Below are positions 7,328 to 49,604 of a stretch of DNA of 52,757 nucleotides, piece after piece (the stretch's first letter is position 1; every line of letters begins with the position of its first letter). This stretch comes from Escherichia phage vB_EcoM_SD350, in sequence record OR911937.1. The stretch is one strand, 5' to 3'. The position numbers and the translations under genes were made by a program. The notes below the pieces were generated by a model. The model searched no databases. It was not told the origin of the DNA and saw nothing but the letters and a program-made list of their open reading frames with translations.

Positions 7328-7356
7328 TTTACTTACTTCGCGTAACTCGTTATAAT
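7328..7356 (+). promoter_or_regulatory. late-block promoter candidate (TTTACT-N17-TATAAT)
   Basis: TTTACT 7328-7333, TATAAT 7351-7356; same architecture recurs at 10701, 12617, 18075, 20941, 49575. Confidence 0.4.
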
Positions 7357-7388
7357 CCCGACTATCCGGATTAACGAGGACGATACCC

Positions 7389-7679
7389 ATGGCAAAACCG
7401 AAAAAAACCCGTGAGGCAACAGAAGAGCTGTTGGCCACGATGCGACGTATCCAACTGGACCCGTTGGAAGTTATGCAACGGGCTATCATACTTGCTGAAC
7501 GTGAAGACGACTACAAAGCGATGATGGATGGTGCACTGGGCGTTATGCCGTACATGTATCCTAAACTGAAAGAATCCGTTGTCAAAGCAGACATCGACCA
7601 GAACCTGTCTGGTAATGGTGTCAACCTGAACATTACAATAGGCGACCAGAAAGTGGTAGATACTACTGGGGAAGAGTAA
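7389..7679 (+). CDS. terminase small subunit candidate
   Basis: 96-aa ORF immediately upstream of the large terminase, GAGGA ribosome-binding site; positional call. Confidence 0.45.
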   Translation: MAKPKKTREATEELLATMRRIQLDPLEVMQRAIILAEREDDYKAMMDGALGVMPYMYPKLKESVVKADIDQNLSGNGVNLNITIGDQKVVDTTGEE

Positions 7680-7682
7680 TAA

Positions 7683-9131
7683 ATGAATCTTGACTTTCAC
7701 CTGCATGACAGACAAGGTGCCGCTCTGCAGTCTCAGGCAACTGAGATTCTGTACGGTGGCGCCGCTGGTGGTGGTAAGTCTCACCTTATGCGTGTAATGT
7801 CAATTATCATGTGCTGCATGATACCTGACTTGCAGATTTACCTTTTCCGCCGAAACTATAACGACCTTACGGCTAACCACATGGTTGGTCCCACAAGTTA
7901 TCCTGCCTTGCTGGACGGTATGTGCAAAGCTGGCAAGTGCAAGATTAACTACTCGAGCAACACGATTAAATTCTGGAACGGTGCGAACATCAAGCTCTGC
8001 CACCTCCAGTACGAAAAAGATATTTATACATACCAGGGTGCGGAGATTCACGTTCTGCTGATGGATGAGCTTACTCACTTCACAGAAACGATGTACCGCT
8101 TCTTGCGTAACCGTGTCCGACTCGGTGCTCTCAAAGTCCCTGAGAACTTTTTCCGGCCACTGCCACTCATCTTTTGTGGGTCAAACCCCGGTGGTGTTGG
8201 TCACAACTGGGTTAAGCGCACTTTCGTAACTGCTGCTCCTCCGATGAAAATCGTTAAGCAGGAAAAACGCGAAGGCGGTATGGCGCGTCAGTACATTCCG
8301 GCTAAGATGACTGATAACCCTACGCTGATGGAAAACGACCCTGACTACGGTGACCGTCTTGAAGGTCTTGGTGACCCGGCTCTTGTTGCTGCGATGAAAG
8401 AGGGTGACTGGGATATTGTTGCAGGTGGTGCGCTTGACGACGTATGGTCAACCAAGTGTATTCTGCCGCGTATGCGTATTCCGAAAGGCTGGACTATCGA
8501 ACGTTCTCTTGACTGGGGTTCTACTCACCCGTTCTCTGTTGGTATCTGGGCTATTGCAAATGGTGCCTCGCTTACAGACGACGAAGGCAATGAGTACTTT
8601 ATTCCGCGTGGTTCAATTATACGTATAGCTGAATGGTATGGGTGCTCTGAAAAAGAAGCTAACAGGGGTATTAAATTATCTGCTGCCGAAGTCGCTCAAG
8701 GTATTATTCGTCTACAGGAAAATTTGCAGGCTGGTGGCTGGATTCAAAGCAACGTTAATCCTGGTCCGGCAGATAGTCAGATTTATGCGTGCAAGGAAAA
8801 AGACGTCGAGACTATCGCGAAGAAAATGGAAGACGAAGGCGTAACCTGGGTCAAGGCCGACAAGTCGCAAGGTTCGAGAATAAATGGCTTAGAGCTATTC
8901 CGTCAGCTTCTGAAAAATGTTAAGATGGACGAAACGGAAAAGCCGGGCATTTATTTCATGGAAAACTGTCCAGCAGCCATAAACACGTTGCCGGTTCTGC
9001 CGCGTGACAAGAACAACACGGAAGATGTCGACACGAACTCTGAGGACCACGTATACGATGATTGTCGTTACATGGTGTTGCGTGGCATCAACCGTTATAC
9101 TACCAAGCTCAAAATAAATATGGGACGGTAA
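7683..9131 (+). CDS. terminase large subunit
   Basis: 482 aa; Walker A GGAAGGGKSH near the N-terminus and acidic nuclease-like C-terminal half; followed by portal. Confidence 0.7.
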   Translation: MNLDFHLHDRQGAALQSQATEILYGGAAGGGKSHLMRVMSIIMCCMIPDLQIYLFRRNYNDLTANHMVGPTSYPALLDGMCKAGKCKINYSSNTIKFWNGANIKLCHLQYEKDIYTYQGAEIHVLLMDELTHFTETMYRFLRNRVRLGALKVPENFFRPLPLIFCGSNPGGVGHNWVKRTFVTAAPPMKIVKQEKREGGMARQYIPAKMTDNPTLMENDPDYGDRLEGLGDPALVAAMKEGDWDIVAGGALDDVWSTKCILPRMRIPKGWTIERSLDWGSTHPFSVGIWAIANGASLTDDEGNEYFIPRGSIIRIAEWYGCSEKEANRGIKLSAAEVAQGIIRLQENLQAGGWIQSNVNPGPADSQIYACKEKDVETIAKKMEDEGVTWVKADKSQGSRINGLELFRQLLKNVKMDETEKPGIYFMENCPAAINTLPVLPRDKNNTEDVDTNSEDHVYDDCRYMVLRGINRYTTKLKINMGR

Positions 9132-9132
9132 A

Positions 9133-10695
9133 ATGTCGATAACCCCAAGCAGCACGCCGAACGTCGGATACCAGCGTCCTGAGCTGACTAAGAACGCTGG
9201 TAAGTACCGAATGATTAAGGACTGCATCGAGGGTCAGGAAGCTGTTAAAGCACGCGGTGATTTTTATCTGCCTCGTCCTGACCCTACGAACTGCACAGAA
9301 GAAAACCTGATGCGGTACAATTCGTACCTGCGTCGCGCTGTGTTCTATAACGTACTACAGCGAACTCTTTCGGGTATGACTGGCCTGGTATTCCAGCAGC
9401 AGCCTGAGATGTTGATGCCTGACGATATGGAAGTGCTGAAAGTAAATATCGACGGTGCAGGCATTGGTGCTATTCAGCAAATGCGTAAGTGCTTCAAGTC
9501 TGTTCTGGCTTTTGGTCGAGCGGGTCTGTTGACTGACTTCCCTAAAGCACGTATCGGTGAGTTTGGCGAGTCCATTGGCTTTACCCGTAAAGAGCTGATG
9601 GACGGAGATGTACAGCCGACTGTAACGCTGTATATGCCATGGCAGATTATAAACTGGCGGGAAGAGTATCGCAACGGTAAAGTGATGCTCACTCAGGTTG
9701 TCATTTGCGAACAGATACCGGGGGTTACTGATGGCTTTCAGCAAGACTACACACCCGTGTGGCGTCACCTTTACCTGGATGAAGAAGGCAATTGCAACCA
9801 GTCTTTGTGGGTCAATAAGGGCGACAAGAATGCGCAGAACGTCTCCGGTGGTGCGTTGTATGTCACGCAAGAAAATGTTGTCTTACGCGACTCCAACGGC
9901 TTACCGCTGAAGTTTATTCCGTTCCAGTTTATTGGTTCTGAAACAAACAGCGCTGAGATTGACCCTCCGCCGATGTACGACTTAGCTGTGCTTAACATTG
10001 CACACTACCGTAACTCTGCTGACTACGAAGAATCATGTTTCGTAACAGGTCAACCCACAGTATGGGCATCTGGACTTACTGAGGCATGGGTTGAAGATGT
10101 TCTGAAGGGTGAACTGCGACTCGGTTCGTTTGGTGGTATTCCGCTGCCGGCTAACGCCGCTGTAGGTATTATCCAGACCAACCCTAACACCCAGCCGTTT
10201 GAAGCGATGAAGCAAAAAGAAGCACAGATGATTGCAATCGGTGCTCGTCTGATTCGTGAGAATGGTAAGGTAGAACGACGCGAAGTTGAGATTAAGAATG
10301 AAGCGGCATCTGAAGCTTCGCTTATCGTAACTGTTGCGCAGAACGTTGAAGCTGCTTATCGTAAGGCAATCGAATGGTGTGGCCTGTTCTACGGACACCC
10401 TAAAGAAGAAATTACGATTAACCTCAGCTACAACTTCATCTATAGCCAGTTGACTTATCAAGAACGTCAGCAGCTGGTTAATGAATGGATTGCCGGTGCT
10501 ATCACGTTTAGTGAAATGCGTAGCAATCTTAAACAAGCTGGCATTGCTAAGCTCACCGACGAAGAAGCCAAGAAGCTAATTGATGAAGAGCTGGCTGAAC
10601 GCGATGCGCGTGAGGTAGCAAAAGAAGCAGAAAAGAACGCTCAAGCAGCTAAGAACAGCGATGGGCAGGAAAATAATCCAGAAAAAACTGAATAA
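9133..10695 (+). CDS. portal protein
   Basis: 520-aa ORF directly after the terminase, acidic C-terminus; position and size. Confidence 0.6.
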   Translation: MSITPSSTPNVGYQRPELTKNAGKYRMIKDCIEGQEAVKARGDFYLPRPDPTNCTEENLMRYNSYLRRAVFYNVLQRTLSGMTGLVFQQQPEMLMPDDMEVLKVNIDGAGIGAIQQMRKCFKSVLAFGRAGLLTDFPKARIGEFGESIGFTRKELMDGDVQPTVTLYMPWQIINWREEYRNGKVMLTQVVICEQIPGVTDGFQQDYTPVWRHLYLDEEGNCNQSLWVNKGDKNAQNVSGGALYVTQENVVLRDSNGLPLKFIPFQFIGSETNSAEIDPPPMYDLAVLNIAHYRNSADYEESCFVTGQPTVWASGLTEAWVEDVLKGELRLGSFGGIPLPANAAVGIIQTNPNTQPFEAMKQKEAQMIAIGARLIRENGKVERREVEIKNEAASEASLIVTVAQNVEAAYRKAIEWCGLFYGHPKEEITINLSYNFIYSQLTYQERQQLVNEWIAGAITFSEMRSNLKQAGIAKLTDEEAKKLIDEELAERDAREVAKEAEKNAQAAKNSDGQENNPEKTE

Positions 10696-10700
10696 AGCTA

Positions 10701-10729
10701 TTTACTTTCGGTTTACCTGGCTATATAAT
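10701..10729 (+). promoter_or_regulatory. promoter candidate upstream of scaffold/capsid
   Basis: TTTACT 10701-10706, 17-nt spacer, TATAAT 10724-10729. Confidence 0.4.
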
Positions 10730-10872
10730 CCTTCATGTCAACCGCGCAACAGCCGGCCACGAGAGTCTGCAGGGCTCAGTGGATTTCGGATGGCTGGCTG
10801 CGCGGTTTGACCCAAACCTGTTCGGAGCCCACTTGAGTGGATTGAGCCCCTCTCATATAGGATTGTAAAATT

Positions 10873-11586
10873 ATGGCACTTAAAACAGTTGTAACTGACC
10901 TTAACGAAGTTGATGAAGGCTTCCGCGGCCTGTATATCAAAGACGACGCGTCCGGTGCGTTTCGTTTGGATGTTGAACCAGACGAAAAAACGCTGAAAGA
11001 ATTAGAAGACCTGCGCAAAGAAAAACAGCGTATGGAGCAGCACACCAAAAAACTTCTCGAAGAGAAGAAAAAAGAAGCTGAACGTGCTCGCCTCGCTGAA
11101 GAAGAACGCGCACGTCGTGAGCGTGATGTTGAATCTCTTGAGCGTTCAATCAAAGAGAAGCATCAGGCTGAACTTGAACAGTATACCAGTCGTCAGGCAC
11201 AGCTGCAAGCACAGCTGGAAGCGCAGATGGTTGATAACATCGCGTTGAACCTGGCTAACCAACTCTCTGACACCCCGGCATTAATTATGCCACACATCAA
11301 GGCCCGACTGCGCGCTCAGGAAATTGATGGTAAGTGGCGTACTATCGTCGTGGATGTTATGGGTAACCCGACTGCTACAACGCCAGATGAGCTAGTGGAG
11401 CATATGCGCGCTGATAAGCAGTTTGCACCTCTTGTGCGTGGAACCAAGGCTGGCGGTGGCGGTGCCAACGGCGGCGGAGCTAATCCTGGTGGGAACGGCG
11501 GTGGCGAACAGCACACTTTCGGGGGCGGGGATGACCGCATAGCACGTGCTCGTGCTAAAATCCAAAACACACAATGGGGCAAATAA
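10873..11586 (+). CDS. head scaffolding protein candidate
   Basis: 237 aa, charged coiled-coil-like (EEKKKEAERARLAEEERARRER), Gly-rich C-terminus, between portal and capsid. Confidence 0.5.
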   Translation: MALKTVVTDLNEVDEGFRGLYIKDDASGAFRLDVEPDEKTLKELEDLRKEKQRMEQHTKKLLEEKKKEAERARLAEEERARRERDVESLERSIKEKHQAELEQYTSRQAQLQAQLEAQMVDNIALNLANQLSDTPALIMPHIKARLRAQEIDGKWRTIVVDVMGNPTATTPDELVEHMRADKQFAPLVRGTKAGGGGANGGGANPGGNGGGEQHTFGGGDDRIARARAKIQNTQWGK

Positions 11587-11589
11587 GTT

Positions 11590-12567
11590 ATGTCACTGTA
11601 TATTTTTAACGAACAAGTACGTTCTACCGCCACCGAACTGGTCGACCAGGACGTACAGAAGTTCAACGAAGCTTCTGCAGGTACCCTTATCCTGGGTAAC
11701 CAGTACGTAATTGGTGATTACGTTGAGCAGGCAATGTGGCAGCTGGTTGACGGCATCGCTACCCGCCGTAATGCTTACGCTGGCACCAACAAAGTTGATG
11801 CGCAGACTCTGGGCCAGATTCTGGACCGCTCTGTTAAAATCGACGGCCGTGTTGGTCCTCTGAACATTACCGGTACTATGATGCGTCGCATCGGTGCAGG
11901 TGACACTGAACCAGCAGCTGTTGTTGCTGCACAGGCTTCTGCTGCAATGTTCCAGGATTACCTGAATACCACTGCTGCATGTCTGGTAGCTGCTATCGGC
12001 GCAAACGCTGATGTTGTTCTGGACGTAACTTCAGGCTCCGGTGCTGCTGCAAACATCACCATGCAGAACCTGAACAAAGTCAACGCGAAGATGGGTGACC
12101 GTTCTCAGCAGATTCGTGCGTACATCATGCACTCTACTGCGTTCCACTCCCTCATCGATCAGGCTATCAACAACACGGAACACCTGTTCCAGATTGGTGA
12201 CCTGAACGTGTACAAAGACTTCCTGGGTCGTCGTTATGTCGTTTCTGACATCCCGGCTCTGGTTGATGGCGCCGGTGCTTCCGCTAAGTACCGCACTCTG
12301 GGTCTGACCCCGTCTGCTGCAATCGTTCAGGTCGGCGGCCTGTACGACATGGTTACCTCCGAGCAAACCGGTGGTGAAAACATCCTGCGTCAGATGCAGG
12401 GTGAATACGACTTCAACGTGTCGCTGAAAGGCTACAGCTGGGTCGGTCACAAAGCTGGTCAGTCTCCGACTGATGAAGACCTGGCTGCTCAGGCTTCCTG
12501 GTCTAAAGTTGCGACTTCCAACAAAGACACCGCTGGTGTTATGTTGCTGGCTAAGTCTGCAATCTAA
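11590..12567 (+). CDS. major capsid protein candidate
   Basis: 325 aa, biased codon usage, followed directly by a strong intrinsic terminator; position after scaffold. Confidence 0.6.
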   Translation: MSLYIFNEQVRSTATELVDQDVQKFNEASAGTLILGNQYVIGDYVEQAMWQLVDGIATRRNAYAGTNKVDAQTLGQILDRSVKIDGRVGPLNITGTMMRRIGAGDTEPAAVVAAQASAAMFQDYLNTTAACLVAAIGANADVVLDVTSGSGAAANITMQNLNKVNAKMGDRSQQIRAYIMHSTAFHSLIDQAINNTEHLFQIGDLNVYKDFLGRRYVVSDIPALVDGAGASAKYRTLGLTPSAAIVQVGGLYDMVTSEQTGGENILRQMQGEYDFNVSLKGYSWVGHKAGQSPTDEDLAAQASWSKVATSNKDTAGVMLLAKSAI

Positions 12568-12585
12568 CCCACAAACGGGACTAAC

Positions 12586-12618
12586 AAAAGGCGAGCTGAC
12601 GAGCTCGCCTTTTTTATT
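12586..12618 (+). terminator. rho-independent terminator after the capsid gene
   Basis: GGCGAGC-loop-GCTCGCC stem followed by TTTTTTATTT. Confidence 0.7.
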
Positions 12619-12645
12619 TACACGTATAAAGTTCTGGTATATAAT
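12617..12645 (+). promoter_or_regulatory. promoter candidate (TTTACA-N17-TATAAT)
   Basis: TTTACA 12617-12622, TATAAT 12640-12645, just after the terminator. Confidence 0.4.
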
Positions 12646-12671
12646 CGGACTAAACTTGCTGGAGGCTTTCT

Positions 12672-13172
12672 ATGGCATACACACTTGTTGTGGAAGACGG
12701 TTCAATTGTTCCGGGTGCTAACTCGTATGTTAGCGCAGCAGAAGTTGATGAATTTATCACTAACGAAGGTATTCTCATTCAACCAGGAACTGACCCGTAC
12801 TACCAGGCTGCCAAAGCAGCTATCCGACTTGATAACCAGTTTAACTGGCTAGGTCGTAAGGTCAGCAAAACACAGAGCATGGCTTGGCCCCGTACTGGTC
12901 TCGGTGCATGCAATGTTGACATCGCGGAGTCTGTAATTCCGCGAGAAGTTAAGCTGGCACAGCTTTATATGATGGCCAGTGTATTGAGCTACGACGGTGA
13001 AGAAGGTGTGCGTAGCGACCAGGCTTTGCGCCGTAAGAAAGTTGGTAACCTGGAGATTGAATACTTCGACTCCAAATCAGGCGTTACCGGTGCAACTGAC
13101 CTTTGGACGTCAGACGTCAAGGTCATGCTCAAGCACCTTGTGGGTGCATCACTGAGAACGCGGAGAGTATAA
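12672..13172 (+). CDS. head-tail connector/adaptor protein candidate
   Basis: 166-aa ORF immediately after the capsid gene; positional. Confidence 0.45.
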   Translation: MAYTLVVEDGSIVPGANSYVSAAEVDEFITNEGILIQPGTDPYYQAAKAAIRLDNQFNWLGRKVSKTQSMAWPRTGLGACNVDIAESVIPREVKLAQLYMMASVLSYDGEEGVRSDQALRRKKVGNLEIEYFDSKSGVTGATDLWTSDVKVMLKHLVGASLRTRRV

Positions 13173-13660
13173 TGATTCGTATACGCCTTGAACGTCGCGA
13201 CAAACAAAAGTTCGAGTTCACCTACCGTGCCTTTAAGTCGTTTGAAGGTCAAGGCGTATCAGTAGGTGTTCATCCAGAGCACAACAGACGTATAAATCCC
13301 AGGGACCGTATAACAAACGCCGAGCTAGCAATGGTGCATGAGTACGGTCTTAACGGTCTGCCAGAACGAAGCTTTCTTCGTAGTGCTGTTGGTGGCAAGG
13401 GTAAAGGCCGACAGGCAATAAACAAAGCTTTCCGCGATAATGTACCTGCTGTTCTCAGAGGAAGCATGACTGCGCATGAGCTTAACGACAAAATAGGTCG
13501 TATGCTTGTTGACGCTGTTCACGACAGAATGGACAGTGACGTGCCACCTCCTAACACCGAGCTGACAGAAGAACGCAAACGCGGGCCAGGTACACTTAGA
13601 GAATCTATGCAGTTGTATGATTCGATAAGTTACAAAGTTGGCAGAAACTGGAGGCTATAA
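13172..13660 (+). CDS. head completion protein candidate
   Basis: ATG at 13172 overlaps the upstream stop, GGAGAG ribosome-binding site; track ORF 13103 trimmed to this start. Confidence 0.45.
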   Translation: MIRIRLERRDKQKFEFTYRAFKSFEGQGVSVGVHPEHNRRINPRDRITNAELAMVHEYGLNGLPERSFLRSAVGGKGKGRQAINKAFRDNVPAVLRGSMTAHELNDKIGRMLVDAVHDRMDSDVPPPNTELTEERKRGPGTLRESMQLYDSISYKVGRNWRL

Positions 13661-14037
13661 TGCTCAAGATAACTTCGCTAATGAAGGATAAAACCTTTGT
13701 AGCATTAACAGATGTTCTTCTCCGAAATGATTCACGCTTACCAAACGGCGACTTCGAAGACGAATATACAGCTGCAAAGTATCTGTGTAACATTCAACCT
13801 GGTGCAGCTACTAACCAGCCTAACCTGTTGACTAAAGACGATGGCGAGCATGAGTTCCCACGTATTGCGATATACTGTGGACAAGAGCTGAAGCTCGGAG
13901 ACTTCGTTATCTACGAAGACCAGCCATACCGTGTATTCCGTATCGACCCATGGAGTCGTCATGGCCACTACTACGTTACAGCAATTCTCCATAAAGGACC
14001 TCAGGGAGCTCGTTCAGAAGCTTTTAACATTACCTGA
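13660..14037 (+). CDS. hypothetical virion protein
   Basis: 125-aa ORF, start overlaps the previous stop, GGAGG ribosome-binding site. Confidence 0.45.
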   Translation: MLKITSLMKDKTFVALTDVLLRNDSRLPNGDFEDEYTAAKYLCNIQPGAATNQPNLLTKDDGEHEFPRIAIYCGQELKLGDFVIYEDQPYRVFRIDPWSRHGHYYVTAILHKGPQGARSEAFNIT

Positions 14038-14488
14038 TGGTTCATGCATTATTGGTGAAGAGTCTGGTACAGTTGATGGTACACCGTATGTTTATCTGCG
14101 TCCTGGTGATGCTTATGACTTCGGACCACCTAGAACCAGACAAGGCTCTGACGGCTTTGAGTACGTCAGCAAGCCAATGATGACGGCTGTACGTATTACA
14201 GCTGTCGGTAAGAATGCTGCTGAGCTAATGCGTAAGCTACACATAGCGCTGGGTAGCTCACCAGCTAAGCAGTTTAACCGTTTACGACATTATGCAATAA
14301 CCAAAATATCGAAGATTGATAATGTCGGTGGTGCTATTGGTGCAGGCTATGCGCAGAAGTCAATGATGACTGTTGACATTAGCTATGTGCATAAAGTTAA
14401 AATTGAGCAACCGTACATCTACAAGGTTGACATCACTTGTATGGATGACAACGGTAACAAAGCGACTGGTACAGTAGAGGAACCGTAA
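13961..14488 (+). CDS. hypothetical virion protein (start uncertain)
   Basis: ORF 13931-14488 overlaps the upstream gene by ~80-100 nt; internal ATG at 13961 is an alternative start. Confidence 0.35.
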   Translation: MATTTLQQFSIKDLRELVQKLLTLPDGSCIIGEESGTVDGTPYVYLRPGDAYDFGPPRTRQGSDGFEYVSKPMMTAVRITAVGKNAAELMRKLHIALGSSPAKQFNRLRHYAITKISKIDNVGGAIGAGYAQKSMMTVDISYVHKVKIEQPYIYKVDITCMDDNGNKATGTVEEP

Positions 14489-15111
14489 TGGCAACTGGAG
14501 TAGACCCGGAACTGCAAGCGCAGCTGGATAAGCTAACAACTGCTGTCCAGCTCATTCATGACTTCGGTATGTCAGACAACCCAAACATCCCTAACCCGGA
14601 AGGCGGTGTCATACGCACACTCGAAGGCATTAACGCTGCAATCAACGAAGCTATACCAAACTTTGAAAACGCTAACGAAGCTGCTATCCAGGCGCGTGCT
14701 GCTCGTGACGCGGCTATTGCAGCCAAAGAAGCTGCAGAAACGGCAGCTGAACAGGCCACAGTAGCTTCGACGTCAGCAATCTATGAGTACGGCAACGTTG
14801 CAAGTGCAGCTACAGTGACTATACCAGCTGCATCTAAAACAATTGTCAGCCTTACACTTAACCAGCCAAACACCGTAATTAATATCGGTGGTGTATCTGA
14901 CCCGTCTACTGTTGCGCGTCAGATTACTATTGCTATTAAGCAAGGCACTGGTTCTAACAAAGTGACTGCTTGGGATCCAAGAATAAAATGGGCCAACAAC
15001 AGGAAGCCCGTTCTGTCATTCCTTGTGGGTTACACAGATGTTGTTACGTTGCTGACCTTTGACTCAGGCGCAACTTGGATGGGTTTCTTTAACGGTGGAT
15101 GGATTAAATAA
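14488..15111 (+). CDS. hypothetical virion protein
   Basis: 207 aa, Ala-rich, start overlaps the previous stop. Confidence 0.45.
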   Translation: MATGVDPELQAQLDKLTTAVQLIHDFGMSDNPNIPNPEGGVIRTLEGINAAINEAIPNFENANEAAIQARAARDAAIAAKEAAETAAEQATVASTSAIYEYGNVASAATVTIPAASKTIVSLTLNQPNTVINIGGVSDPSTVARQITIAIKQGTGSNKVTAWDPRIKWANNRKPVLSFLVGYTDVVTLLTFDSGATWMGFFNGGWIK

Positions 15112-18068: not shown

Positions 18069-18074
18069 CCACTA

Positions 18075-39407: not shown

Positions 39408-39432
39408 GCACTTTTTACGCTTCTGGTAAAAA

Positions 39433-40497: not shown

Positions 40498-40603
40498 AAT
40501 TTTTTCCTCGTCTACAGGGCTTAATGTTTGTTCGTTACGTGAGTTAATATACGTCATTTAAAAGAGTGTGTAAACACCTTTTTTAAACTTTTTTCATTAG
40601 TGT

Positions 40604-42482: not shown

Positions 42483-42504
42483 TTATCATCTCCTCATTAA
42501 CTTT

Positions 42505-42533
42505 ATATATTATACCACTTCCTTGTGGTAAAG
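42505..42533 (-). promoter_or_regulatory. leftward promoter candidate (CCAC-N6-GTGGTATAAT on the minus strand)
   Basis: Plus strand ATTATACCACTTCCTTGTGGTAAAG; minus strand reads TTTACCACaaggaaGTGGTATAAT. Confidence 0.45.
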
Positions 42534-42540
42534 TATACTT

Positions 42541-43419
42541 TTATTTTAAGGAAAGTTTAACGGGCTTCTCATCCTGCGGGAAGACATCAGCAGGGCGATA
42601 ATCATCACAAGCTGCTAATTGCTCTTCGAGTGTTTCGAGTTCTTTCTGGTGCTTGTTGCAATACCACACTTTGCCCTGAAGCGGTTTACTGTAATGGCAG
42701 GTTCTGCAGTTCCTGTCTGGCATTGCTCCTTTGTGGCACAGGTGATGGTATTCGCACATCCCTGGTTTGCACTCCCACCAAATAGGCGATTCAGAAATCT
42801 TCGGCATATCCAAACCAGATTCCGCATATACAACAGCCTCCGCTTTACTCAGTTGTATGTCGCTTTCCAGTAAGTCAATCTCGACCACCTCAAAATACAT
42901 CTCGTCGGTGTTCTTATTGATTGCGATGTACACAGCTTGATTCAGCTTAAGCTTCCGCATGTATACCTGCATCTGGGCATAGTGTACCGGCTTACTTGCT
43001 TTAACAGACTTGAGCTTGACTAACTCTTTAAACGACTTATCGCCATGCGTCTTGAATTCAGCAAGTGCCCATACGCCTTTGTATTTAATTACACAGTCAC
43101 AAGACCCAGAGAAGATGCCATTGAATTCGTGTATGCGCCACTGCTTACCAGTCTTGGGATTGACGTCCAGCACTTCGTCACATACGGAACGAAGCCACTT
43201 TACAATTCTGCTTTCTTCAAGGTTACCACGTTCAAACAGACGAAGTTGCTTAGCTGTAAACTTCTCCTTGAACGACCAGTGCAGAACGTGCCAAAGATAG
43301 CGATAGCAGTTGTGTCCTATCTGTGATGCTCCAAGATGCCCGCGTCGTTCTTCTCTTTCGTGGGCTTCAACTATCTTGATGTCAATACGTTTCTGCAGGT
43401 CGTCAAACGGACTTGGCAT
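42541..43419 (-). CDS. PD-(D/E)xK exonuclease, RecB/Cas4-like with Cys cluster
   Basis: EFK and QMQVY nuclease motifs plus C-terminal Cys cluster (CKPGMC, C, C..C); start set at MPSPFDD (GAGGAG upstream), not the track start 43536. Confidence 0.55.
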   Translation of the reverse strand: MPSPFDDLQKRIDIKIVEAHEREERRGHLGASQIGHNCYRYLWHVLHWSFKEKFTAKQLRLFERGNLEESRIVKWLRSVCDEVLDVNPKTGKQWRIHEFNGIFSGSCDCVIKYKGVWALAEFKTHGDKSFKELVKLKSVKASKPVHYAQMQVYMRKLKLNQAVYIAINKNTDEMYFEVVEIDLLESDIQLSKAEAVVYAESGLDMPKISESPIWWECKPGMCEYHHLCHKGAMPDRNCRTCHYSKPLQGKVWYCNKHQKELETLEEQLAACDDYRPADVFPQDEKPVKLSLK

Positions 43420-43888
43420 TGTTAAACTCCTCAACGCTGAATTCATCGTACACAATATTATGAGCCCACAAGTGAGCGACGGCATTTGCCATGCTGTCCT
43501 TCCATTTGGATTGAGAAGCGGTATGTGCCAATGCAACTACACGTACCAGGTTAAGGTTGGCTATCAGCATGTCAGCACAATGTTCGCACGGCGGGTAGGT
43601 TATGTAGATGGTAACCGGGCCTAAAGAAGGAGTGTCTAACTCACTCCTTATGTTAGCTAAGGTGTTTATCTCGCTATGAATAGTTAGAGCGTTCTTAAGG
43701 CTATTAGGCACTATTCTTATAGAGTCTAGCTGCGTAGGTAGACCGTTATATCCAGTGGAAATGATACGCTTGTTCTGGTCCACAAGAACGCTACCGACTT
43801 GACGTTTAGGGTCCTTCGACCAGCTCGCAACTTCACAAGCTATGCGCATAAACCGCCTATCCCACTTGTCCATCTTCTTCTTTTGCAT
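43403..43888 (-). CDS. dCMP deaminase-family zinc deaminase
   Basis: 161 aa; HSE and PCEHC zinc-binding motifs of the cytidine/dCMP deaminase fold. Confidence 0.65.
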   Translation of the reverse strand: MQKKKMDKWDRRFMRIACEVASWSKDPKRQVGSVLVDQNKRIISTGYNGLPTQLDSIRIVPNSLKNALTIHSEINTLANIRSELDTPSLGPVTIYITYPPCEHCADMLIANLNLVRVVALAHTASQSKWKDSMANAVAHLWAHNIVYDEFSVEEFNNAKSV

Positions 43889-43910
43889 GGTAGTCTCCGT
43901 ATACGAAAAT

Positions 43911-43926
43911 AGGGGCCGAAGCCCCT
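43911..43926 (-). other. intercistronic GC hairpin with UUCG tetraloop, second copy
   Basis: AGGGGC-cgaa-GCCCCT; on the transcript followed by AUUUUCG and a GGAGAC ribosome-binding site before the deaminase ATG. Confidence 0.45.
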
Positions 43927-43949
43927 ATTGAATATCTACTCGGCAGGGA

Positions 43950-44495
43950 TTATTCTTCCCAAGGAGCTGCTGCACCGTCGTCAGCACCAGGTGCCGTTGC
44001 AGTAGCACTCGCCTTCGTTGAAGTACCCGCACCTGCACCTACTTTCTTCGTCGTCGATGCAGTTGCTTGAGAATGACCACCTACTGCAGTAGTTGCTTCA
44101 GTTGACGCTTTGTATTCGCGAATATCGTTCTGCGGATCGTATTCACCGGTCTTGTCGATACGAACACCAACTTTACCAGCTACAATACGGTTTTCCAGTA
44201 AGTCGGTAGAAGTCAGCTCAACAATACCCAGCGCACGACACAACGCAGACAGTTTGCGATGACCGATTTCAACAGCTTGCGCATTAGGGTTGGAGTAGGT
44301 AATCATGTCAAATACAACACGGTTAGCGAACTCACCTTCCTGCACTTTCAGACGCAGGGACAGGTAAGAACCAGTGCCTGCTTTAGTCGGCTTCAGCTCA
44401 ACCTCTTCAATCATGAAGTTGTACCAGCCTTTCGGGATCGGGTCAAAAGACTGTTGCGGTTCGACGGTAGAGCTGTTGAAGTTTAATTCAGCCAT
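43950..44495 (-). CDS. hypothetical protein, possible ssDNA-binding partner of the ATPase
   Basis: 181 aa, beta-rich N-terminal domain plus Ala/Thr/Gly-rich acidic tail ending PWEE; family guess (DUF669-like) from memory. Confidence 0.4.
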   Translation of the reverse strand: MAELNFNSSTVEPQQSFDPIPKGWYNFMIEEVELKPTKAGTGSYLSLRLKVQEGEFANRVVFDMITYSNPNAQAVEIGHRKLSALCRALGIVELTSTDLLENRIVAGKVGVRIDKTGEYDPQNDIREYKASTEATTAVGGHSQATASTTKKVGAGAGTSTKASATATAPGADDGAAAPWEE

Positions 44496-44602
44496 TGTTT
44501 GGTATCCTGTTTAAGTTTAGTTTAATTTCGTTTAACGCTTTACCGGCAGCGTTCGGCCGTGATGCTTATTATACGCCACTTTTTATCATGGCGTAAACAC
44601 TT

Positions 44603-45487
44603 TTATTCGCTGGTTCCTTTCTCAGCTTGAGCGGCTTTCTTCGCCATCCAGGCTTGGTGCTTATCTTTCGATTCGTCCGAACCGATTTTAGTGAGTTGCA
44701 CGTTCGGGTCGTCGTTCTGCATCTGTTCTGCAGCTCGACCTGTCAGAAGCAGGTAGCTGTCTGACTCCGGATGGTAGTACCACAGCTGGTAAGGATGATA
44801 ACCTTGCAGCTTGTCATAAATCCAGCCCAGGTCTGCAGGTTCACGTGCATCCAGTTCACGGCCTGGTGCGTTACGGCACTTAGCTTCCCATTGGTAGTCT
44901 GGTTGTGTCTGGATGTAGCGCTCGCTATTACCATTGGCGTCAGGCGCAGTCATACGTAAAGCAAGTACAGCATCCATAAGATACGGCAGTTGTTTAGGTA
45001 GCTGCTGGCCAGGCATGAGAGGTGAATACAACATTGCACCAGTAACCTCGTCCTTGTTCTTCTCAAGCTTGCAAAGGTATGCAACGCTGAAAGGCAAGTC
45101 ACGGAACTGACGCATGATATACATCATCTTGTCGTTGGTATTACCATAAGCCTGTCGTTTGTCGTTGACCTGCGACTTCTCATAGTCCAGACAAACTTCA
45201 GCAACGTCCGATAGTGAGTCGAAAATAAGATGCTCGTACTTCTGCGCATCCTTACTTTCGGTAAGCCATTTGTATAGCGCCAGAATGTCGTTGAACGTAT
45301 TGATTGGCGTAGAGTCGATGTCAGCATCTGCAATCGACATCAAACCGCCTTCAGCGTTAATGACAAGAACCTTATCGTGAGGCAAGGTCTTAGCCAGGCT
45401 GGTTTTACCAACACCTGATGCGCCGTAAATAGCGACCTTAGGTCGCTTATTTTCTACGGCTTGTTTAGTAGATACAATCTGAACCAT
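44603..45487 (-). CDS. Sak4-like RecA-fold ATPase (recombination)
   Basis: 294 aa; Walker A VAIYGASGVGKTS near the N-terminus, Walker B-like LIFDSLSD. Confidence 0.55.
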   Translation of the reverse strand: MVQIVSTKQAVENKRPKVAIYGASGVGKTSLAKTLPHDKVLVINAEGGLMSIADADIDSTPINTFNDILALYKWLTESKDAQKYEHLIFDSLSDVAEVCLDYEKSQVNDKRQAYGNTNDKMMYIMRQFRDLPFSVAYLCKLEKNKDEVTGAMLYSPLMPGQQLPKQLPYLMDAVLALRMTAPDANGNSERYIQTQPDYQWEAKCRNAPGRELDAREPADLGWIYDKLQGYHPYQLWYYHPESDSYLLLTGRAAEQMQNDDPNVQLTKIGSDESKDKHQAWMAKKAAQAEKGTSE

Positions 45488-45717
45488 TAATGATAGTCCT
45501 CGTAAAGTGATTCTTCATCGCAGTACATACGATAAAGAGCTTCTTCGGCTTCTGCCAGGGTGTCAAACTCCTCGCCACAGACGGAGTATTTTGTGGGTTC
45601 ATCGAATGACTCGACGATGTGCCAGTCATGATGAATACCATATGTCCACAAGTCGCAGTCATCTTTTGCAACAAGCTTACGTGTGGAACGAAATTGTGCT
45701 AGAGTATTGATGCTCAT
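45487..45717 (-). CDS. hypothetical small protein
   Basis: Start set at MSINT (AGGAGAGAG upstream) rather than track start 45756; promoter-like motif at 45745-45770. Confidence 0.4.
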   Translation of the reverse strand: MSINTLAQFRSTRKLVAKDDCDLWTYGIHHDWHIVESFDEPTKYSVCGEEFDTLAEAEEALYRMYCDEESLYEDYH

Positions 45718-45777
45718 ATTCTCTCTCCTCATGTGTATAGAGGTATTATACACCACTTACATGGGGTAAGTACACTA

Positions 45778-46224
45778 CTATTTTACACTAACAGCTTGAC
45801 ACGATAGCCGTGACAAACCGAGGTTGGCTATGACACCATCGAGCAATACTCCTGCATGTTCTTCGTTGTATGCTTCTACCCACAAAGGGATGGTGACGCC
45901 CTTCAGATGGTCGCTGTACACGTTGAACCTATATACCTGTTTGTGTGCTTTGTCAACACGTACAACAGTAAGGTTACCATCTTCGTAAGGAGGAAGCTCA
46001 ACGCCTTTCTTGCTCCAGAAGTTACGGAACTCAGCACTATTAACAATGCCGTGCACAACACGTTCTGTAAGTTCTGTTTTGAGGTCTGCACGTGCCTTTG
46101 TACTGATAAAGAAACGACAAGAGAAGAAAGCATTGACGTTTATCACATCAACCGCATACACAACGTTATGCTCTTCAGTAGTTGGTGCTTTATAAACAAT
46201 GTATTTAGTTTTGAACAGGTCCAT
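45778..46224 (-). CDS. hypothetical protein
   Basis: Start set at MDLFK (GGAGAG upstream); 148 aa. Confidence 0.45.
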   Translation of the reverse strand: MDLFKTKYIVYKAPTTEEHNVVYAVDVINVNAFFSCRFFISTKARADLKTELTERVVHGIVNSAEFRNFWSKKGVELPPYEDGNLTVVRVDKAHKQVYRFNVYSDHLKGVTIPLWVEAYNEEHAGVLLDGVIANLGLSRLSCQAVSVK

Positions 46225-46272
46225 AGTACTCTCCAGGGAGGAAGACTGGCGGGCTTGCACCCGCCTAAGTTA

Positions 46273-47178
46273 TTACAGCAGTTCTGCTTTCAGCGCAGCG
46301 ATACCATCGAGCAATGCTTTGATGTCCGGGTTAGATGCCGCCAGGTCAGCAACAACTGTCTGACGACGACGTTCCAGTTCTTTCTCAACTTCCAGGTCGA
46401 GGCGTGCTGACGCTTCACGCAGTAAGTCTTCAACCTGCTGACGACGCTGATACTTGTTAAAGTCAGGCACATCAACCAGCCATTTGAGAGTTGCAGTGTT
46501 GTAGCCAGAAGTGTTTGCTGCACTTACAGACACAACATCAACGAGCTTGGTACCGTTCAGCTCCGGATAGTTAACATTGCGAACGTCAACAACCGCTTTG
46601 TCACCTACACTTACTTTGCCGATGTACTTGTAAGTGTACACACGACCATTCGGTTCAAACTTAACACCAACAAACTTCAGTTTGTCGTCTGCAATAACCT
46701 CTTCCTCAACTTTGAAGTTGATTGCAGTGTTCTTGACAGGTGCAGCCGCTTTGAGCTTAGCGACCATGTACTGTTCTGAATGAGACGGACGGCACAGACG
46801 GAAGACGTCCTCATTGTAGGTCAGCCAGTTACCGGTCTCATCCACGCATGCAATCTGATTAGTGCCATCCAGTGAACGAACACCCGGGCGATTCTTCTCA
46901 ACACGATACAGCTTACCTTCTTTCAGGTTAGCGTAAGAACGGCGGGCGATACCCCAGTTGTGTTTTTCAGATTCGTACTTAGCGAAACGATCAACGCTGA
47001 AGTTCTGCTTCAGACCACGGTCGTCGATTACCCATAAGTTATCGTAAGCCCCGCCGAAAGAACCTAGGTTGGCATACACTTTGCCCTGCGTCAACAGGGA
47101 AGTGTTTCCCTCGTCAACACAGATAACAAAACCCAGAGCTTCGTGTGCTTTACCGCTGCGGTCAAATACTGTAGTCAT
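46273..47178 (-). CDS. hypothetical protein (301 aa)
   Basis: Long ORF, beta-rich internal repeats, coiled-coil C-terminus; no motif assigned. Confidence 0.55.
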   Translation of the reverse strand: MTTVFDRSGKAHEALGFVICVDEGNTSLLTQGKVYANLGSFGGAYDNLWVIDDRGLKQNFSVDRFAKYESEKHNWGIARRSYANLKEGKLYRVEKNRPGVRSLDGTNQIACVDETGNWLTYNEDVFRLCRPSHSEQYMVAKLKAAAPVKNTAINFKVEEEVIADDKLKFVGVKFEPNGRVYTYKYIGKVSVGDKAVVDVRNVNYPELNGTKLVDVVSVSAANTSGYNTATLKWLVDVPDFNKYQRRQQVEDLLREASARLDLEVEKELERRRQTVVADLAASNPDIKALLDGIAALKAELL

Positions 47179-47292
47179 TTCTTGTTTCCTTGTATACCAG
47201 TTTAATTGTATGCCAGAGTTATTCCCTGCGCATGTGCTTTATTGCTTAACCGTTAAAGACATTATATCATTAGTGAGTGATGACGTACACAT

Positions 47293-47583
47293 TTATTTTA
47301 AGGCAGAAGTGCAAATAGCATCACACAAACAATAATGAGCACGGTCGTAGTCTTCAAACAAGAACACTTCGCCATTGGCGACAACTTCATTACTGTTGAC
47401 CTGCAGGCTAATACCTGAATGCAGAAGCACATCCATAGCCTGGTCCTTGTTCTTGTACGGGTCCCAAATAAGCTGGAAGCCTGACCCGCAAAGGAGACAT
47501 CCCTTGAGCTCCGGAAGAGTTGACTCCTTCACAGTCACATTACAAATCTTAGCCAGTTTAGCACGAGAATCGAGAGTACTCAT
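47293..47583 (-). CDS. hypothetical Cys-rich small protein
   Basis: 96 aa with CLLC...C.C..C; stop overlaps the next gene's start. Confidence 0.4.
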   Translation of the reverse strand: MSTLDSRAKLAKICNVTVKESTLPELKGCLLCGSGFQLIWDPYKNKDQAMDVLLHSGISLQVNSNEVVANGEVFLFEDYDRAHYCLCDAICTSALK

Positions 47584-47870
47584 TTACGTTTACCTTTACG
47601 TTTGTGTAGCGGAGTATATGTTTTCTTTGGTACGCCAAACATGGCCGCATATGTACCGACTTCTTTCTTTGTTGGCTTATCCACAATCTCGTCAATCACG
47701 ATTAAGTCATGGTTGATATTGCGAAAGACTTCAGCCGCTCTTTTCTCAACAGGAGTAAAGTCAATAACCAGCTCTTTGCCTATCAGGCTTTCTTTGAACT
47801 TGTCAAACAGCCATTTGTCACGCGGACCAGGATTGCCCATAAACATAACACGCATCTGCTTATTGTCCAT
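47580..47870 (-). CDS. hypothetical small basic protein
   Basis: 96 aa, basic C-terminus (KRKGKRK). Confidence 0.4.
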   Translation of the reverse strand: MDNKQMRVMFMGNPGPRDKWLFDKFKESLIGKELVIDFTPVEKRAAEVFRNINHDLIVIDEIVDKPTKKEVGTYAAMFGVPKKTYTPLHKRKGKRK

Positions 47871-47938
47871 GGATGATATACCCCGTTATTTGTGTTGCCA
47901 GGTACAAACCGTATACCACACACCCAACAAGTATGGCA

Positions 47939-48280
47939 TCAAGAATCAGATGAGCTATCTTCACGTTTGACCTCCGGAAGTAATGAGTTATCAACCTTGA
48001 TCAGTACGTTACGGCTGTTAACCACTTCCAGGCTGGTGCCATCCTTTTTGTGGGTTACACGAATAAATGCAACACCCTCAGCCTGTGCCTGCTCAATAGC
48101 TTTATTCAGCACAACATTATCCTGTACCATATGACGTACGCGAGGAAGGATATTGCAAAGAGGTTCCATCTCGTCCATTCCTGCAGTACGCATGACGGAC
48201 TTGAGAATGCCAAGATGATGCTTGTAACGGTCTTCAAGATTATACTTCTTGCTGTTATCTGATGCCATGTAAGTCTCCAA
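47939..48280 (-). CDS. hypothetical protein
   Basis: 113 aa; preceded on the transcript by a GC hairpin (48287-48305) and GGAGAC ribosome-binding site. Confidence 0.45.
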   Translation of the reverse strand: METYMASDNSKKYNLEDRYKHHLGILKSVMRTAGMDEMEPLCNILPRVRHMVQDNVVLNKAIEQAQAEGVAFIRVTHKKDGTSLEVVNSRNVLIKVDNSLLPEVKREDSSSDS

Positions 48281-48312
48281 AAGTTAAGGGGCTTGTGCTA
48301 AGCCCCGTTTAA

Positions 48313-48762
48313 TTACTCGGCTTCTTCCGTAGCTGCCGGGGTGAATGTTACAGTCGGAATACCAGGCGAGGTCTTCACAACAGGGTCGACGATAGCCAGT
48401 TGTTCTGGTGTCAGGTTACGGTATGCAGTAACTGACATTTCATACTTGGTTTTAAACAGCTTGGCAACAACAGTCTTCGGTAACTTCTTCATTACGTCAG
48501 GCACAAGCTTCTGGTCTAGTGAGCGGTTAACCTTCTGCTCAACCTTGAGTTTACCAGGTACGCCATGCATGCTGAACTCAACCGTTTGTGTACCTTCTTT
48601 ACCACGATTGATAATCATGTCACGTTCAAGACGTGCTTTAATGGTCCGGCGCAACGTCTCCTGGTCAGCTTTCGCTTGTGCCATCCAGCGGTTCAGATTC
48701 GCCAGCTTGTCGTACAGCTGTTCCGTATCCATCGATTCCAGTTCTTGTGGGTTCAATGCCAT
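48313..48762 (-). CDS. hypothetical protein
   Basis: Start set at MALNP (GAGGAA upstream); promoter-like motif 48865-48897 lies upstream. Confidence 0.45.
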   Translation of the reverse strand: MALNPQELESMDTEQLYDKLANLNRWMAQAKADQETLRRTIKARLERDMIINRGKEGTQTVEFSMHGVPGKLKVEQKVNRSLDQKLVPDVMKKLPKTVVAKLFKTKYEMSVTAYRNLTPEQLAIVDPVVKTSPGIPTVTFTPAATEEAE

Positions 48763-49033
48763 CAGTTGTTTCCTCAGGTTGCATGTGCATAGTTGCACCT
48801 ATTAGTAGACAATAGTTATTGAACATTGTACGTAGTGCCTGGCCCGCAACAATATCCGTTATGTCTATTATACCACTTTTAGTGGTGACGCGTAAAGCTT
48901 TTTCTTTCTTTGTTTTCTCCACAAATGCAATGCTGATGATTTCTTCCGCATGAATTACGTGGATGGTACCTGCAAACTCACCAGTCTTAGCTGGTGCCTG
49001 GTACACTAACGACATAGACGGTTGGTTACTCAC
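48665..49033 (-). CDS. alternative overlapping ORF (uncertain)
   Basis: 122-aa ORF with GTG start and GGAG 7 nt upstream, but overlaps 48313-48762 by ~100 nt and contains the promoter-like motif. Confidence 0.3.
   Translation of the reverse strand: MSNQPSMSLVYQAPAKTGEFAGTIHVIHAEEIISIAFVEKTKKEKALRVTTKSGIIDITDIVAGQALRTMFNNYCLLIGATMHMQPEETTDGIEPTRTGIDGYGTAVRQAGESEPLDGTSES
48865..48897 (-). promoter_or_regulatory. leftward promoter candidate (TTTACG-N18-TATAAT with CCAC/GTGG inverted repeat)
   Basis: Minus strand reads GCTTTACGCGTCACCACTAAAAGTGGTATAAT. Confidence 0.4.
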
Positions 49034-49043
49034 TTAATTACTC

Positions 49044-49481
49044 CTATTTATATAAGTCCATCCAGTTACGATACTCGTCATAAAACCGGTCAAACTCGTT
49101 TTTGGTGAGTGCAATAGCAACACCATTTACCAGATGCATGGTTCGTGTTTTGATGTTGACATACATGACGTTGCTGTACGGGAACAAGCTACCGTCATTG
49201 TCAGTGAAGTAAGTCGGTGTGATATGAAGCGCATCACGCAATGCAACCAGTGATTCAACAGCTTCAGCGTGCCATTCACGTCTGAAGGTCATGCAAGGCG
49301 GTACACCGTCTTCGTCCTGGGTACCGCGCAAAGTAAGATATACAATTTCGGCAGTATCATTGTGTACAATTACGCTAATGTCAACGATGTCGCTGGTACG
49401 AAAGGTAACAAAGTGCTCTTCAATTACTTGTTCGTCGGTATTAGGACTGACGCCCTGAAAGGTCTTGAGTGTGTGAAACAT
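49044..49481 (-). CDS. hypothetical protein
   Basis: Start set at MFHTLK (AAGGAG 9 nt upstream); the track's N-terminal 28 aa read like translated AT-rich promoter DNA. Confidence 0.45.
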   Translation of the reverse strand: MFHTLKTFQGVSPNTDEQVIEEHFVTFRTSDIVDISVIVHNDTAEIVYLTLRGTQDEDGVPPCMTFRREWHAEAVESLVALRDALHITPTYFTDNDGSLFPYSNVMYVNIKTRTMHLVNGVAIALTKNEFDRFYDEYRNWMDLYK

Positions 49482-49574
49482 TGGTTGTATCTCCTTAACA
49501 GAATGTAAGTCTATTATGTATATAAAGGAGGGGAAAGTAAATAGATATAAATGTATAAAATACATAAAAGTCTA

Positions 49575-49604
49575 TTTACTCTGGTTTAATAACGTGTATA
49601 TAAT
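49575..49604 (+). promoter_or_regulatory. promoter candidate for the right-end rightward genes
   Basis: TTTACT 49575-49580, ~18-nt spacer, TATAAT 49599-49604; AGGAGAG ribosome-binding site before ATG 49635. Confidence 0.4.

Follow-up and report, generated by a model that had tools for sequence, protein, structure and literature searches.

A genome-wide set of near-consensus sigma70-type promoters in Escherichia phage vB_EcoM_SD350

The promoter set and the polymerase that probably reads it

The DNA analysed here, referred to below as the window, is the 52,757-nucleotide record OR911937.1 of Escherichia phage vB_EcoM_SD350. At 52.7 kb it represents the complete genome of a Rosemountvirus-type myovirus, a group of Salmonella and E. 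coli phages. Over 13 kb its DNA is 98-99% identical to that of the Salmonella phages vB_SalM_Sz and LSE7621 and of the Escherichia phage swi3, and the RefSeq genome of BP63 (NC_031250, Rosemountvirus) runs collinear with it from the first base. The genes are arranged in a leftward group of small genes, a long rightward block running from nucleotide metabolism to lysis, a leftward replication arm and a short rightward primase operon (Table 1). We describe the promoters of these blocks, which share a -35 hexamer of the T[GT]TAC type and a TATAAT-like -10. Those before the structural genes are called A to E, seven of those in the leftward arm L1 to L7, and the one before the primase operon F; the others are named by position.

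Table 1. Promoters, secondary-structure elements and gene blocks in the window
Feature	Position	Strand	Sequence or structure	Context
Promoter 122	122-150	+	TTTACA-N17-TACAAT	Upstream of the RusA-like/PDDEXK nuclease gene 205-636; conserved in BP63, KE25 and SOI901; annotated in BP63
Promoter 1500	1472-1500	-	TTTACT-N17-TATAAT, exact	Among left-arm small genes; conserved in BP63, not found in KE25
Promoter 4001	3973-4001	-	TGTACA-N17-TATTAT	Head of the left-arm small-gene cluster, leader of about 240 nt; orthologous -10 is TATAAT in BP63 and CATAAT in SOI901
Promoter 4498	4498-4526	+	aaaaagtgg-TGTACT-N17-TATCAT	Nucleotide-metabolism operon 4565-7211; block conserved in BP63, PK3, SOI901 and fHy-Eco03
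Promoter 5641	5641-5669	+	TGTACA-N17-TATAAT	Inside the DHFR-like gene, upstream of thymidylate kinase; present in BP63 and PK3; annotated in S144
Promoter A	7328-7356	+	TTTACT-N17-TATAAT	Before small terminase, TerL and portal; orthologue annotated in S144
Promoter B	10701-10729	+	TTTACT-N17-TATAAT	Before scaffold and major capsid; orthologue annotated in S144
Promoter C	12617-12645	+	TTTACA-N17-TATAAT	Before the head-tail adaptor/neck/tail operon; annotated in BP63 and S144
Promoter D	18075-18103	+	TTTACT-N17-TATAAT	Before the Ig-like protein gene; annotated in BP63 and S144
Promoter E	20941-20969	+	TTTACT-N17-TATAAT	Before sheath, then tail, baseplate and lysis genes; orthologue annotated in S144
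Promoter L1	39379-39407	-	aaaaagtgc-TTTACC-N17-TATAAT	Preceded by terminator 39462-39435; annotated in BP63
Promoter L2	40546-40574	-	TTTACA-N17-TATATT	Annotated in BP63
Promoter L3	42509-42537	-	TATACT-N17-TATAAT	Before the helicase gene
Promoter L4	44568-44597	-	TTTACG-N18-TATAAT	Before the SSB gene
Promoter L5	45745-45774	-	TGTACT-N18-TATAAT	
Promoter 47289	47261-47289	-	TGTACG-N17-TATAAT	Before the 301-aa gene 46273-47178
Promoter L6	48867-48896	-	TTTACG-N18-TATAAT	Within a coding region
Promoter L7	49513-49541	-	TTTACT-N17-CATAAT	Head of the leftward arm; back-to-back with F
Promoter F	49575-49604	+	TTTACT-N18-TATAAT	Before a 110-aa ORF and the primase/helicase gene; -35 is TGTACA in PK3, KE25 and fHy-Eco03
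Inverted repeat at A	7346-7378	+	CTCGTTA 7346-7352 (end of spacer) with TAACGAG 7372-7378	-10 in loop
Structured leader	10737-10872	+	Long hairpin from about the predicted +1	Scaffold/capsid mRNA
Intrinsic terminator	12586-12613	+		After the major capsid gene; T-run enters the -35 of promoter C
Hairpin D	18089-18113	+	18089-18096 GCGCCAGC with 18106-18113 GCTGGCGC, 8 bp; 9-nt loop cTATAATaa	Promoter D
Hairpin E	20934-20975	+	About 17 bp; -35 in 5' arm, -10 in 3' arm	Embeds the entire promoter E
TraR/DksA-like gene	33982-34206	-	74-aa zinc-finger protein	Distal end of the replication operon; sole transcription-related gene found
Small genes	0.6-3.7 kb	-		
Divergent non-coding region	3730-4564		830 nt, no plausible ORF	Between left-arm and rightward blocks
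Rightward block	4.6-33.7 kb	+		Nucleotide metabolism, then terminase, portal, scaffold, capsid, neck, tail, baseplate, fibres and lysis
Replication arm	from 49.5 back to 33.7 kb	-		
Primase operon	49.6-52.5 kb	+		
ORF, open reading frame.

A search for TTTAC[AT]-N17-TATAAT returned six exact matches where 0.01 was expected, and none of 100 dinucleotide shuffles reached six. With the -35 relaxed to T[GT]TAC, nine matches with a 17-nt spacer (0.08 expected) and four with an 18-nt spacer (0.07 expected) were found, and again 0/100 shuffles reached either count. The combined number is 13 against about 0.15 expected, and at all 13 sites the local genes run in the direction of the promoter. The minus-strand members of the set lie mostly ahead of replication-arm genes (helicase, SSB and others). 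Once conserved sites with a weaker -10 are added, the total rises to about 19 promoters, 15 of them with a 17-nt spacer and four with an 18-nt spacer; the -10 hexamers at 122, 4498, 40574, 49541 and 4001, each one base off, are all kept in relatives. Compared with the sigma70 -35 consensus TTGACA, TTTACA is identical at five of six positions and TTTACT or TGTACA at four. The canonical TTGACA occurs at none of the sites, position 3 being T throughout. A loose scan based on TTGACA gave 46 matches against 30.7 expected in 1-20000, a modest enrichment, and 26 against 22.7 in 38000-52757, no enrichment, which shows that the strong signal is the specific T[GT]TAC-type motif.

A first-pass annotation of this DNA had recognised part of the set. 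The sites at 7328, 10701, 12617, 18075 and 20941 are indeed exact plus-strand copies of TTTAC[AT]-N17-TATAAT, the related site at 122-150 reads TTTACA-N17-TACAAT, and the genes downstream are those named: terminases and portal, scaffold and capsid, head-tail adaptor, Ig-like protein, sheath, and a right-end operon, which comprises a small ORF and a DUF3987 primase/helicase-type protein. The promoter placed at 49575 is present too, with a spacer of 18 nt in place of the 17 nt given for it. The restriction of the motif to rightward genes had to be abandoned, for an exact minus-strand copy at 1500-1472 had been overlooked and six of the 13 relaxed matches lie on that strand.

The conservation footprint was drawn from PK3 (Loughboroughvirus, about 86% DNA identity), KE25 and fHy-Eco03 (about 79%), and Erwinia phage SOI901 (about 78%). 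The six rightward and eight leftward sites examined occupy the same position in nearly every lineage. Comparison of the window with the PK3, KE25 and SOI901 orthologues revealed identities of 98% in the -10 and 86% in the -35, against 62% in the spacer, 67% in the 20 nt upstream and 56% in the 12 nt downstream. Spacer length is constant at nearly every orthologous site, and variation in the -35 is almost confined to positions 2 (T/G) and 6. Invariant hexamers and spacing amid drifting spacers and flanks are the pattern expected of working -35/-10 promoters, and by this measure the sites are very probably functional, near-consensus sigma70-type promoters.

Promoters at many of these positions have been annotated before. 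In the BP63 record they mark the sites orthologous to 122, C, D and four leftward promoters. The record of S144 (MT663719, Loughboroughvirus) does the same, with features of 29 nt, for A, B, C, D, E and 5641, and in its core the finding is therefore already known. The annotations mark the same sites as those described here but are software or consensus predictions made without conservation analysis. The S144 paper reports that the phage lacks an RNA polymerase (RNAP) of its own and relies on that of the host, with host-type promoters in every cluster, and it suggests that a DksA-like protein may regulate later genes (PMC7432712). In the literature examined we have not seen a description of the T[GT]TAC consensus with its fixed spacing and footprint, of the two flank classes, or of the covarying hairpins that embed D and E (see below).

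No RNAP, sigma factor, AsiA/MotA/gp55/gp33-type factor or helix-turn-helix (HTH) regulator came up when about 56 ORFs, among them all those above 550 aa, were scanned against Pfam and PHROGs. The absence of a phage RNAP gene from the window, as the first-pass annotation had it, is borne out by the lack of an RNAP family match in any scanned ORF. The 844-aa ORF beside promoter F, considered as a T7-like RNAP, was rejected as such, being the DUF3987 protein; the other large ORFs encode a tail protein (985 aa, phrog_2871), an Ig-repeat tail protein (710 aa) and a family A DNA polymerase (655 aa). The T4-type late motif TATAAATA occurs twice in the window against 2.03 expected, neither time upstream of a late gene, and other repeated motifs in the late block at 7.2-33.7 kb proved to be chance occurrences or Ig-domain repeats only. 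Two candidate regulator sites were also rejected. TGTAGAC and TAGACAC, found upstream of 122, 4498 and A, are not enriched (11 versus 7.7 and 6 versus 7.7), and TGGCCA, a pair of which was considered as a protein site flanking E, is common (19 versus 12.5 expected), its downstream copy being TGGCCG in the window.

Taken at the level of sequence, transcription of the phage genes by host sigma70 holoenzyme is well supported. It had been proposed that the motif defines a late promoter set read by host RNAP. The second part stands, given near-consensus, conserved promoters and no phage RNAP or sigma factor; the first does not. Promoter F drives the primase operon, 122 the nuclease gene and 4498 nucleotide metabolism, and the replication genes share the motif, so it is not a late-gene signature, and hexamers common to all gene classes cannot explain late timing. 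We consider it likely that these are ordinary strong host-sigma70 promoters, a genome-wide set of about 19 that drives every module, and that timing is not encoded in the hexamers.

With promoters of this kind, the host sigma70 holoenzyme would read the set T(T/G)TAC(W)-N17/18-TATAAT in the left-arm small genes, nucleotide metabolism, the packaging, head, tail and lysis genes, the leftward replication arm and the primase operon; a phage without its own polymerase or sigma factor would leave all transcription to host RNAP. Sites A to E would divide the 26-kb rightward structural block into units. Transcription from B to the terminator at 12586-12613 would yield a separate mRNA for scaffold and capsid that begins with a structured leader, and C would restart transcription right behind that terminator. 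D and E would act as internal boosters in very short intergenic gaps, which would also bear hairpins formed in read-through RNA.

The -35 consensus of T4 early promoters is also GTTTAC-like. The T4 early promoters, of the form UP/-35/TGn/-10 (PMC2988021), and T7 A1, lambda PL and T5 promoters likewise combine a near-consensus -10 with 17-nt spacing, and the A-rich upstream tract of the T4 early promoters has a counterpart in the leftward class of the window. The T4 early promoters are read by the unmodified host sigma70 holoenzyme and out-compete host promoters (PMC2988021). In T4, however, such promoters serve early genes only, middle and late genes being transcribed through MotA/AsiA and gp55/gp33, whereas here the same core stands before structural genes. 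The result is a near-complete, conservation-backed promoter map for Rosemountvirus, Loughboroughvirus and their relatives, which are widely proposed for biocontrol of Salmonella and E. coli. Dependence on host RNAP is not surprising; together with the map it is useful for annotation, engineering and host-range reasoning.

Hairpins and leader at the structural promoters

Each promoter region was folded and compared with 300 dinucleotide shuffles, and D and E stood out clearly from the rest. At D, the first-pass annotation had placed the -10 in the loop of an 8-bp GC hairpin, and both the position and the stem are exact. Seven of the eight stem pairs are G-C, and the minimum free energy (MFE) is -16.8 kcal/mol (z = -3.4, 2/300 shuffles). 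The stem GCGCCAGC/GCTGGCGC of the window is replaced by TGCCAGC/GCTGGCA in KE25, by AGCCAGU/GCUGGCU in SOI901, and by GTGCCTGC/GCAGGCAC in fHy-Eco03 and an IMG/VR contig. Across the four clades at least three double substitutions compensate each other, one pair is U.G and none is broken. Judged by this covariation, hairpin D is real and under selection for pairing. The hairpin at E, formed by pairing of CTGGCCATTTAC... with ...GTATAATGGCCRG, has an MFE of -21.6 kcal/mol (z = -4.8, 0/300 shuffles). Nine sequences share 15 consensus pairs, with one compensatory change and several that keep the pair only as G.U, which argues for plus-strand RNA rather than a DNA or protein site. Distant sheath homologues (33-47% amino acid identity), taken as an outgroup, had no promoter-motif match in the stretches fetched and were of no help for covariation.

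Both hairpins have the G+C-rich stem-loop of an intrinsic terminator. A U-tract right after the stem is absent at D, where ACCCAAUAAG follows, and at E, where AAAGUCCACC follows, and neither hairpin is in the terminator-scan listing, which spans the first 20 kb and the stretch beyond 38 kb. The terminator at 12586-12613 has both a G+C-rich stem-loop and a U-tract, and its stem sequence varies among clades yet stays paired. Because the U-tract is missing, the D and E hairpins are read as protection or processing elements, and most likely they would serve 3'-end protection or processing of the mRNA of the upstream cistron; a DNA-level or regulator-binding role is also conceivable. The intergenic gaps measure only 67 nt at D and 86 nt at E. 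Each would have to hold both a restart promoter and a hairpin acting in read-through RNA, so that the two elements overlap.

An overlap of promoter and hairpin has a precedent in T4 genes e, soc, 49 and I-TevI, where translation of read-through RNA is blocked and RNA started at the promoter, which lacks the 5' arm, is translated (PMC3014915). As in those genes, the promoters here lie over the 5' strand or loop of a conserved intercistronic hairpin. At A and D the 5' arm lies in the spacer and the -10 in the loop, and at E the -35 lies in the 5' arm, so promoter-initiated RNA would lack the 5' strand at all three. Site A matches the T4 layout exactly, including a 3' strand that carries the Shine-Dalgarno (SD) sequence. 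Its 3' arm TAACGAG overlaps the SD GAGGA (7376-7380) of the small-terminase gene, and CCTCGT, which alone in the spacer is conserved, pairs with CGAGGA of the SD region, leaving the -10 and the start site in the loop. In SOI901 the pairing reaches up to 13 bp and -24 kcal/mol. However, the computed change in SD/AUG accessibility between read-through and promoter-initiated RNA is 1.1-2.3-fold at A, no larger than at the control promoters L1 (1.5-5.8) and F (1.3-3.9), and no compensatory pairs were found in the site A repeat. The T4-type mechanism is for these reasons not claimed at A, although the layout fits. The stems at D and E do not include the SD, and the embedded promoters are of the sigma70 type, not TATAAATA. 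A translational switch of the T4 kind is accordingly an improbable explanation for the promoter-overlapping hairpins.

Promoter B is followed by the structured leader of the scaffold/capsid mRNA, a stretch in which the columns average 88% identity across clades, above that of the surrounding coding DNA. Its MFE is -54 kcal/mol (z = -2.6), with wobble-compatible changes only. Matches to the leader core sequence are confined to lineages of this phage group, and the leader, like the rest of the window, has no Rfam match. A conserved small ORF is made less likely by two 1-nt indels between clades that cancel each other out. Possibly the leader stabilises, at its 5' end, the scaffold/capsid mRNA that runs to terminator 12586-12613.

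Weaker hairpins lie in the spacers of L3 and L4 (z about -2.65, 3/300 shuffles each). Spacer inverted repeats at L1, L3, L4 and L6 join the TAC of the -35 and the next bases to the bases before the GTA that enters the -10. The repeat is ACCAC...GTGGT at L3, L1 and L6; at L4 it is TACGCCA/TGGCGTA and covaries to TACATCA/TGGTGTA in SOI901.

Timing of the structural genes

The structural promoters look as strong as the replication promoters, and the puzzle is how late expression is delayed. The leads are the covarying promoter-embedding hairpins, a dichotomy in the promoter flanks and a gene for a TraR-like protein. Promoters A to E have G/C-rich discriminators (ccc, cct, cgg, aagctggcgc and ggcc) and no upstream A-tract. 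The remaining promoters have A/T-rich discriminators, mostly with A first, and an aaaaaRtg-like tract that abuts the -35 and resembles a proximal UP element. By Mann-Whitney test the classes differ within each of four lineages in discriminator GC (p = 0.001-0.007) and in the A-tract (p = 0.008-0.025), in a post hoc comparison of 5 with 9-11 promoters in lineages that are related and not independent, which makes this a lead only. The lead is meaningful because discriminator composition correlates with the direction of the response to DksA, ppGpp and TraR: AT-rich discriminators are associated with activation and GC-rich ones with inhibition, the response being hard to predict from sequence (PMC9304144). 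Class-specific signals would lie only in the flanks, and flank features of this sort are known to determine the kinetics of the open complex and how a promoter responds to secondary-channel factors.

The TraR/DksA-like protein matches Pfam zf-dskA_traR (PF01258, 6.3e-10, above the cut-off), phrog_54 and F-plasmid TraR (6N57/5W1S; E = 1.3e-6), and its gene is conserved in BP63, KE25, fHy-Eco03 and S144. Features shared with F TraR and lambda Orf73 (PMC9239242; PDB 6N57, 5W1S) are the size (74 versus 72-73 aa), a C4 finger (C40xxC43...C61xxC64) and an N-terminal DxxDxA motif (D9-I-T-D12-M-A14), which is required for activity (PMC9239242). Compared with F TraR, whose structure has been determined within the RNAP secondary channel (6N57, 5W1S), the predicted protein has a six-residue N-terminal extension that shifts DxxDxA by 6 residues, and it comes from a virulent myovirus. 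The adjacent gene (33704-33982, minus strand) belongs to the N4 Gp49/Sf6 gene 66 family (PF13876, 9.5e-16), and the pair (33704-34206) stands at the distal end of the leftward operon, against a bidirectional terminator annotated in BP63.

We offer a link between the flank classes and the TraR-like protein as a hypothesis, not as a result. Promoters A to E would then form a distinct kinetic class timed by this protein through the RNAP secondary channel: host rRNA promoters would be shut down, G/C- and A/T-rich phage promoters would differ in response, and an early-to-late switch would follow without a sigma factor or DNA-binding activator. The dichotomy is reproduced in four lineages, the gene is conserved with its DxxDxA motif and C4 finger, phage TraR homologues reprogram host RNAP (PMC9239242), and discriminator composition tracks the direction of the DksA/ppGpp response (PMC9304144). 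The same published rule, however, predicts inhibition of the G/C-rich promoters A to E, the wrong direction for a late activator, and lambda Orf73 scarcely affected lambda's own lytic promoters (PMC9239242). A perfect -10 with a 17-nt spacer usually gives stable complexes irrespective of the discriminator, and both the difficulty of predicting the response (PMC9304144) and the post hoc statistics count against timing by the TraR-like protein, which we regard as unlikely. Wider still is the proposal that a virulent myovirus encoding neither a polymerase nor a sigma factor, and no activator that can be recognised, controls the timing of its structural genes by promoter kinetics and RNA structure alone. 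Two kinetic tiers of sigma70 promoters with the same core, told apart by the UP-like A-tract and the make-up of the discriminator, would be read differently by RNAP with the TraR-like protein, while the covarying D and E hairpins would couple read-through to processing or promoter use; we put this forward as speculation with a slim chance of being correct.

The late promoters might instead require an unrecognised phage factor, such as an activator, an anti-sigma/co-activator pair or a repressor, that binds TTTAC or the palindromes at D and E, in place of or alongside contacts by sigma70 region 4. At least 25 ORFs have no assigned function, the invariant T at position 3 sets every -35 apart from TTGACA, and at D and E the arms of the palindromes extend over core promoter elements. 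On the other hand, 17/18-nt spacing is the classical sigma70 geometry, a single -35 type serves the promoters of all gene classes, and Pfam gave no match to AsiA, MotA, gp55 or gp33-type families or to HTH domains. The stem at D changes among clades yet pairs, with a G.U-type pair in SOI901, which fits nucleic-acid structure better than a protein site, and TGGCCA, TGTAGAC and TAGACAC are not special motifs in the genome. A dedicated late factor of this kind is thus quite unlikely. That the matches are chance AT-rich hexamers without function is refuted by shuffles, co-orientation at 13/13 sites and hexamers far better conserved than flanks or spacers, even though sigma70-like matches are generally common and the loose TTGACA scan stayed near chance.

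Several points nevertheless weigh against ordinary host-sigma70 promoters as the full account. The 25 or more ORFs without known function could hide a repressor, an activator or a sigma-appropriation factor. Near-consensus structural promoters should fire at once on naked DNA, so a delay mechanism is missing. Searches of the literature returned no transcription start site mapping, RNA-seq or expression data for this phage group. For the hairpins, the proposed role in RNA draws solely on G.U-compatible changes and the missing U-tract, and the flank comparison has the limits given with it. Finally, the DNA of fHy-Eco03 is reported to resist many restriction enzymes, which has been ascribed to DNA modification, and such modification could alter promoter recognition; a thymidine-type modification, if true, would fall within the T-rich promoter hexamers.

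Genome termini and other features

The left arm (1 to about 3700) is equivalent to a 3699-bp direct terminal repeat of fHy-Eco03 determined with PhageTerm. From this correspondence, the repeat has probably been collapsed to a single copy in the window, as in BP63, so promoters 122 and 1500 and the left-arm genes may occur twice in virion DNA. The far right end (52690-52757) is very AT-rich and of low complexity (ttattattattattat...), and the left end has A-runs at 60-110; these are possibly related to the genome termini. Besides its two divergent promoters (4001-3973 and 4498-4526), the non-coding region at 3730-4564 contains runs of G, for example gcggcgggggggtaa near 4290. The divergent promoters L7 and F have exactly between them the AT-rich inverted repeat ATGTAT-AAA-ATACAT (49551-49565), which has similar palindromes at the same place in PK3, KE25 and SOI901 and could be an operator for both arms.

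Genes of pyrimidine metabolism are found at 5055-6232, 37490-38967 and 43403-43888 and include DHFR-like, thymidylate kinase, thymidylate synthase family, nucleotide pyrophosphohydrolase and dCMP deaminase genes. The replication arm has a non-coding gap of about 680 nt at 39353-40029, and at the equivalent place Erwinia phage SOI901 has tRNA-Gln and tRNA-Pro; ARAGORN found no tRNAs in the whole window. GenBank record PP583539.1, 'Listeria phage 220426122051', with Listeria monocytogenes as its host label, is 97% identical to the present phage over 13 kb, and that label is probably wrong.

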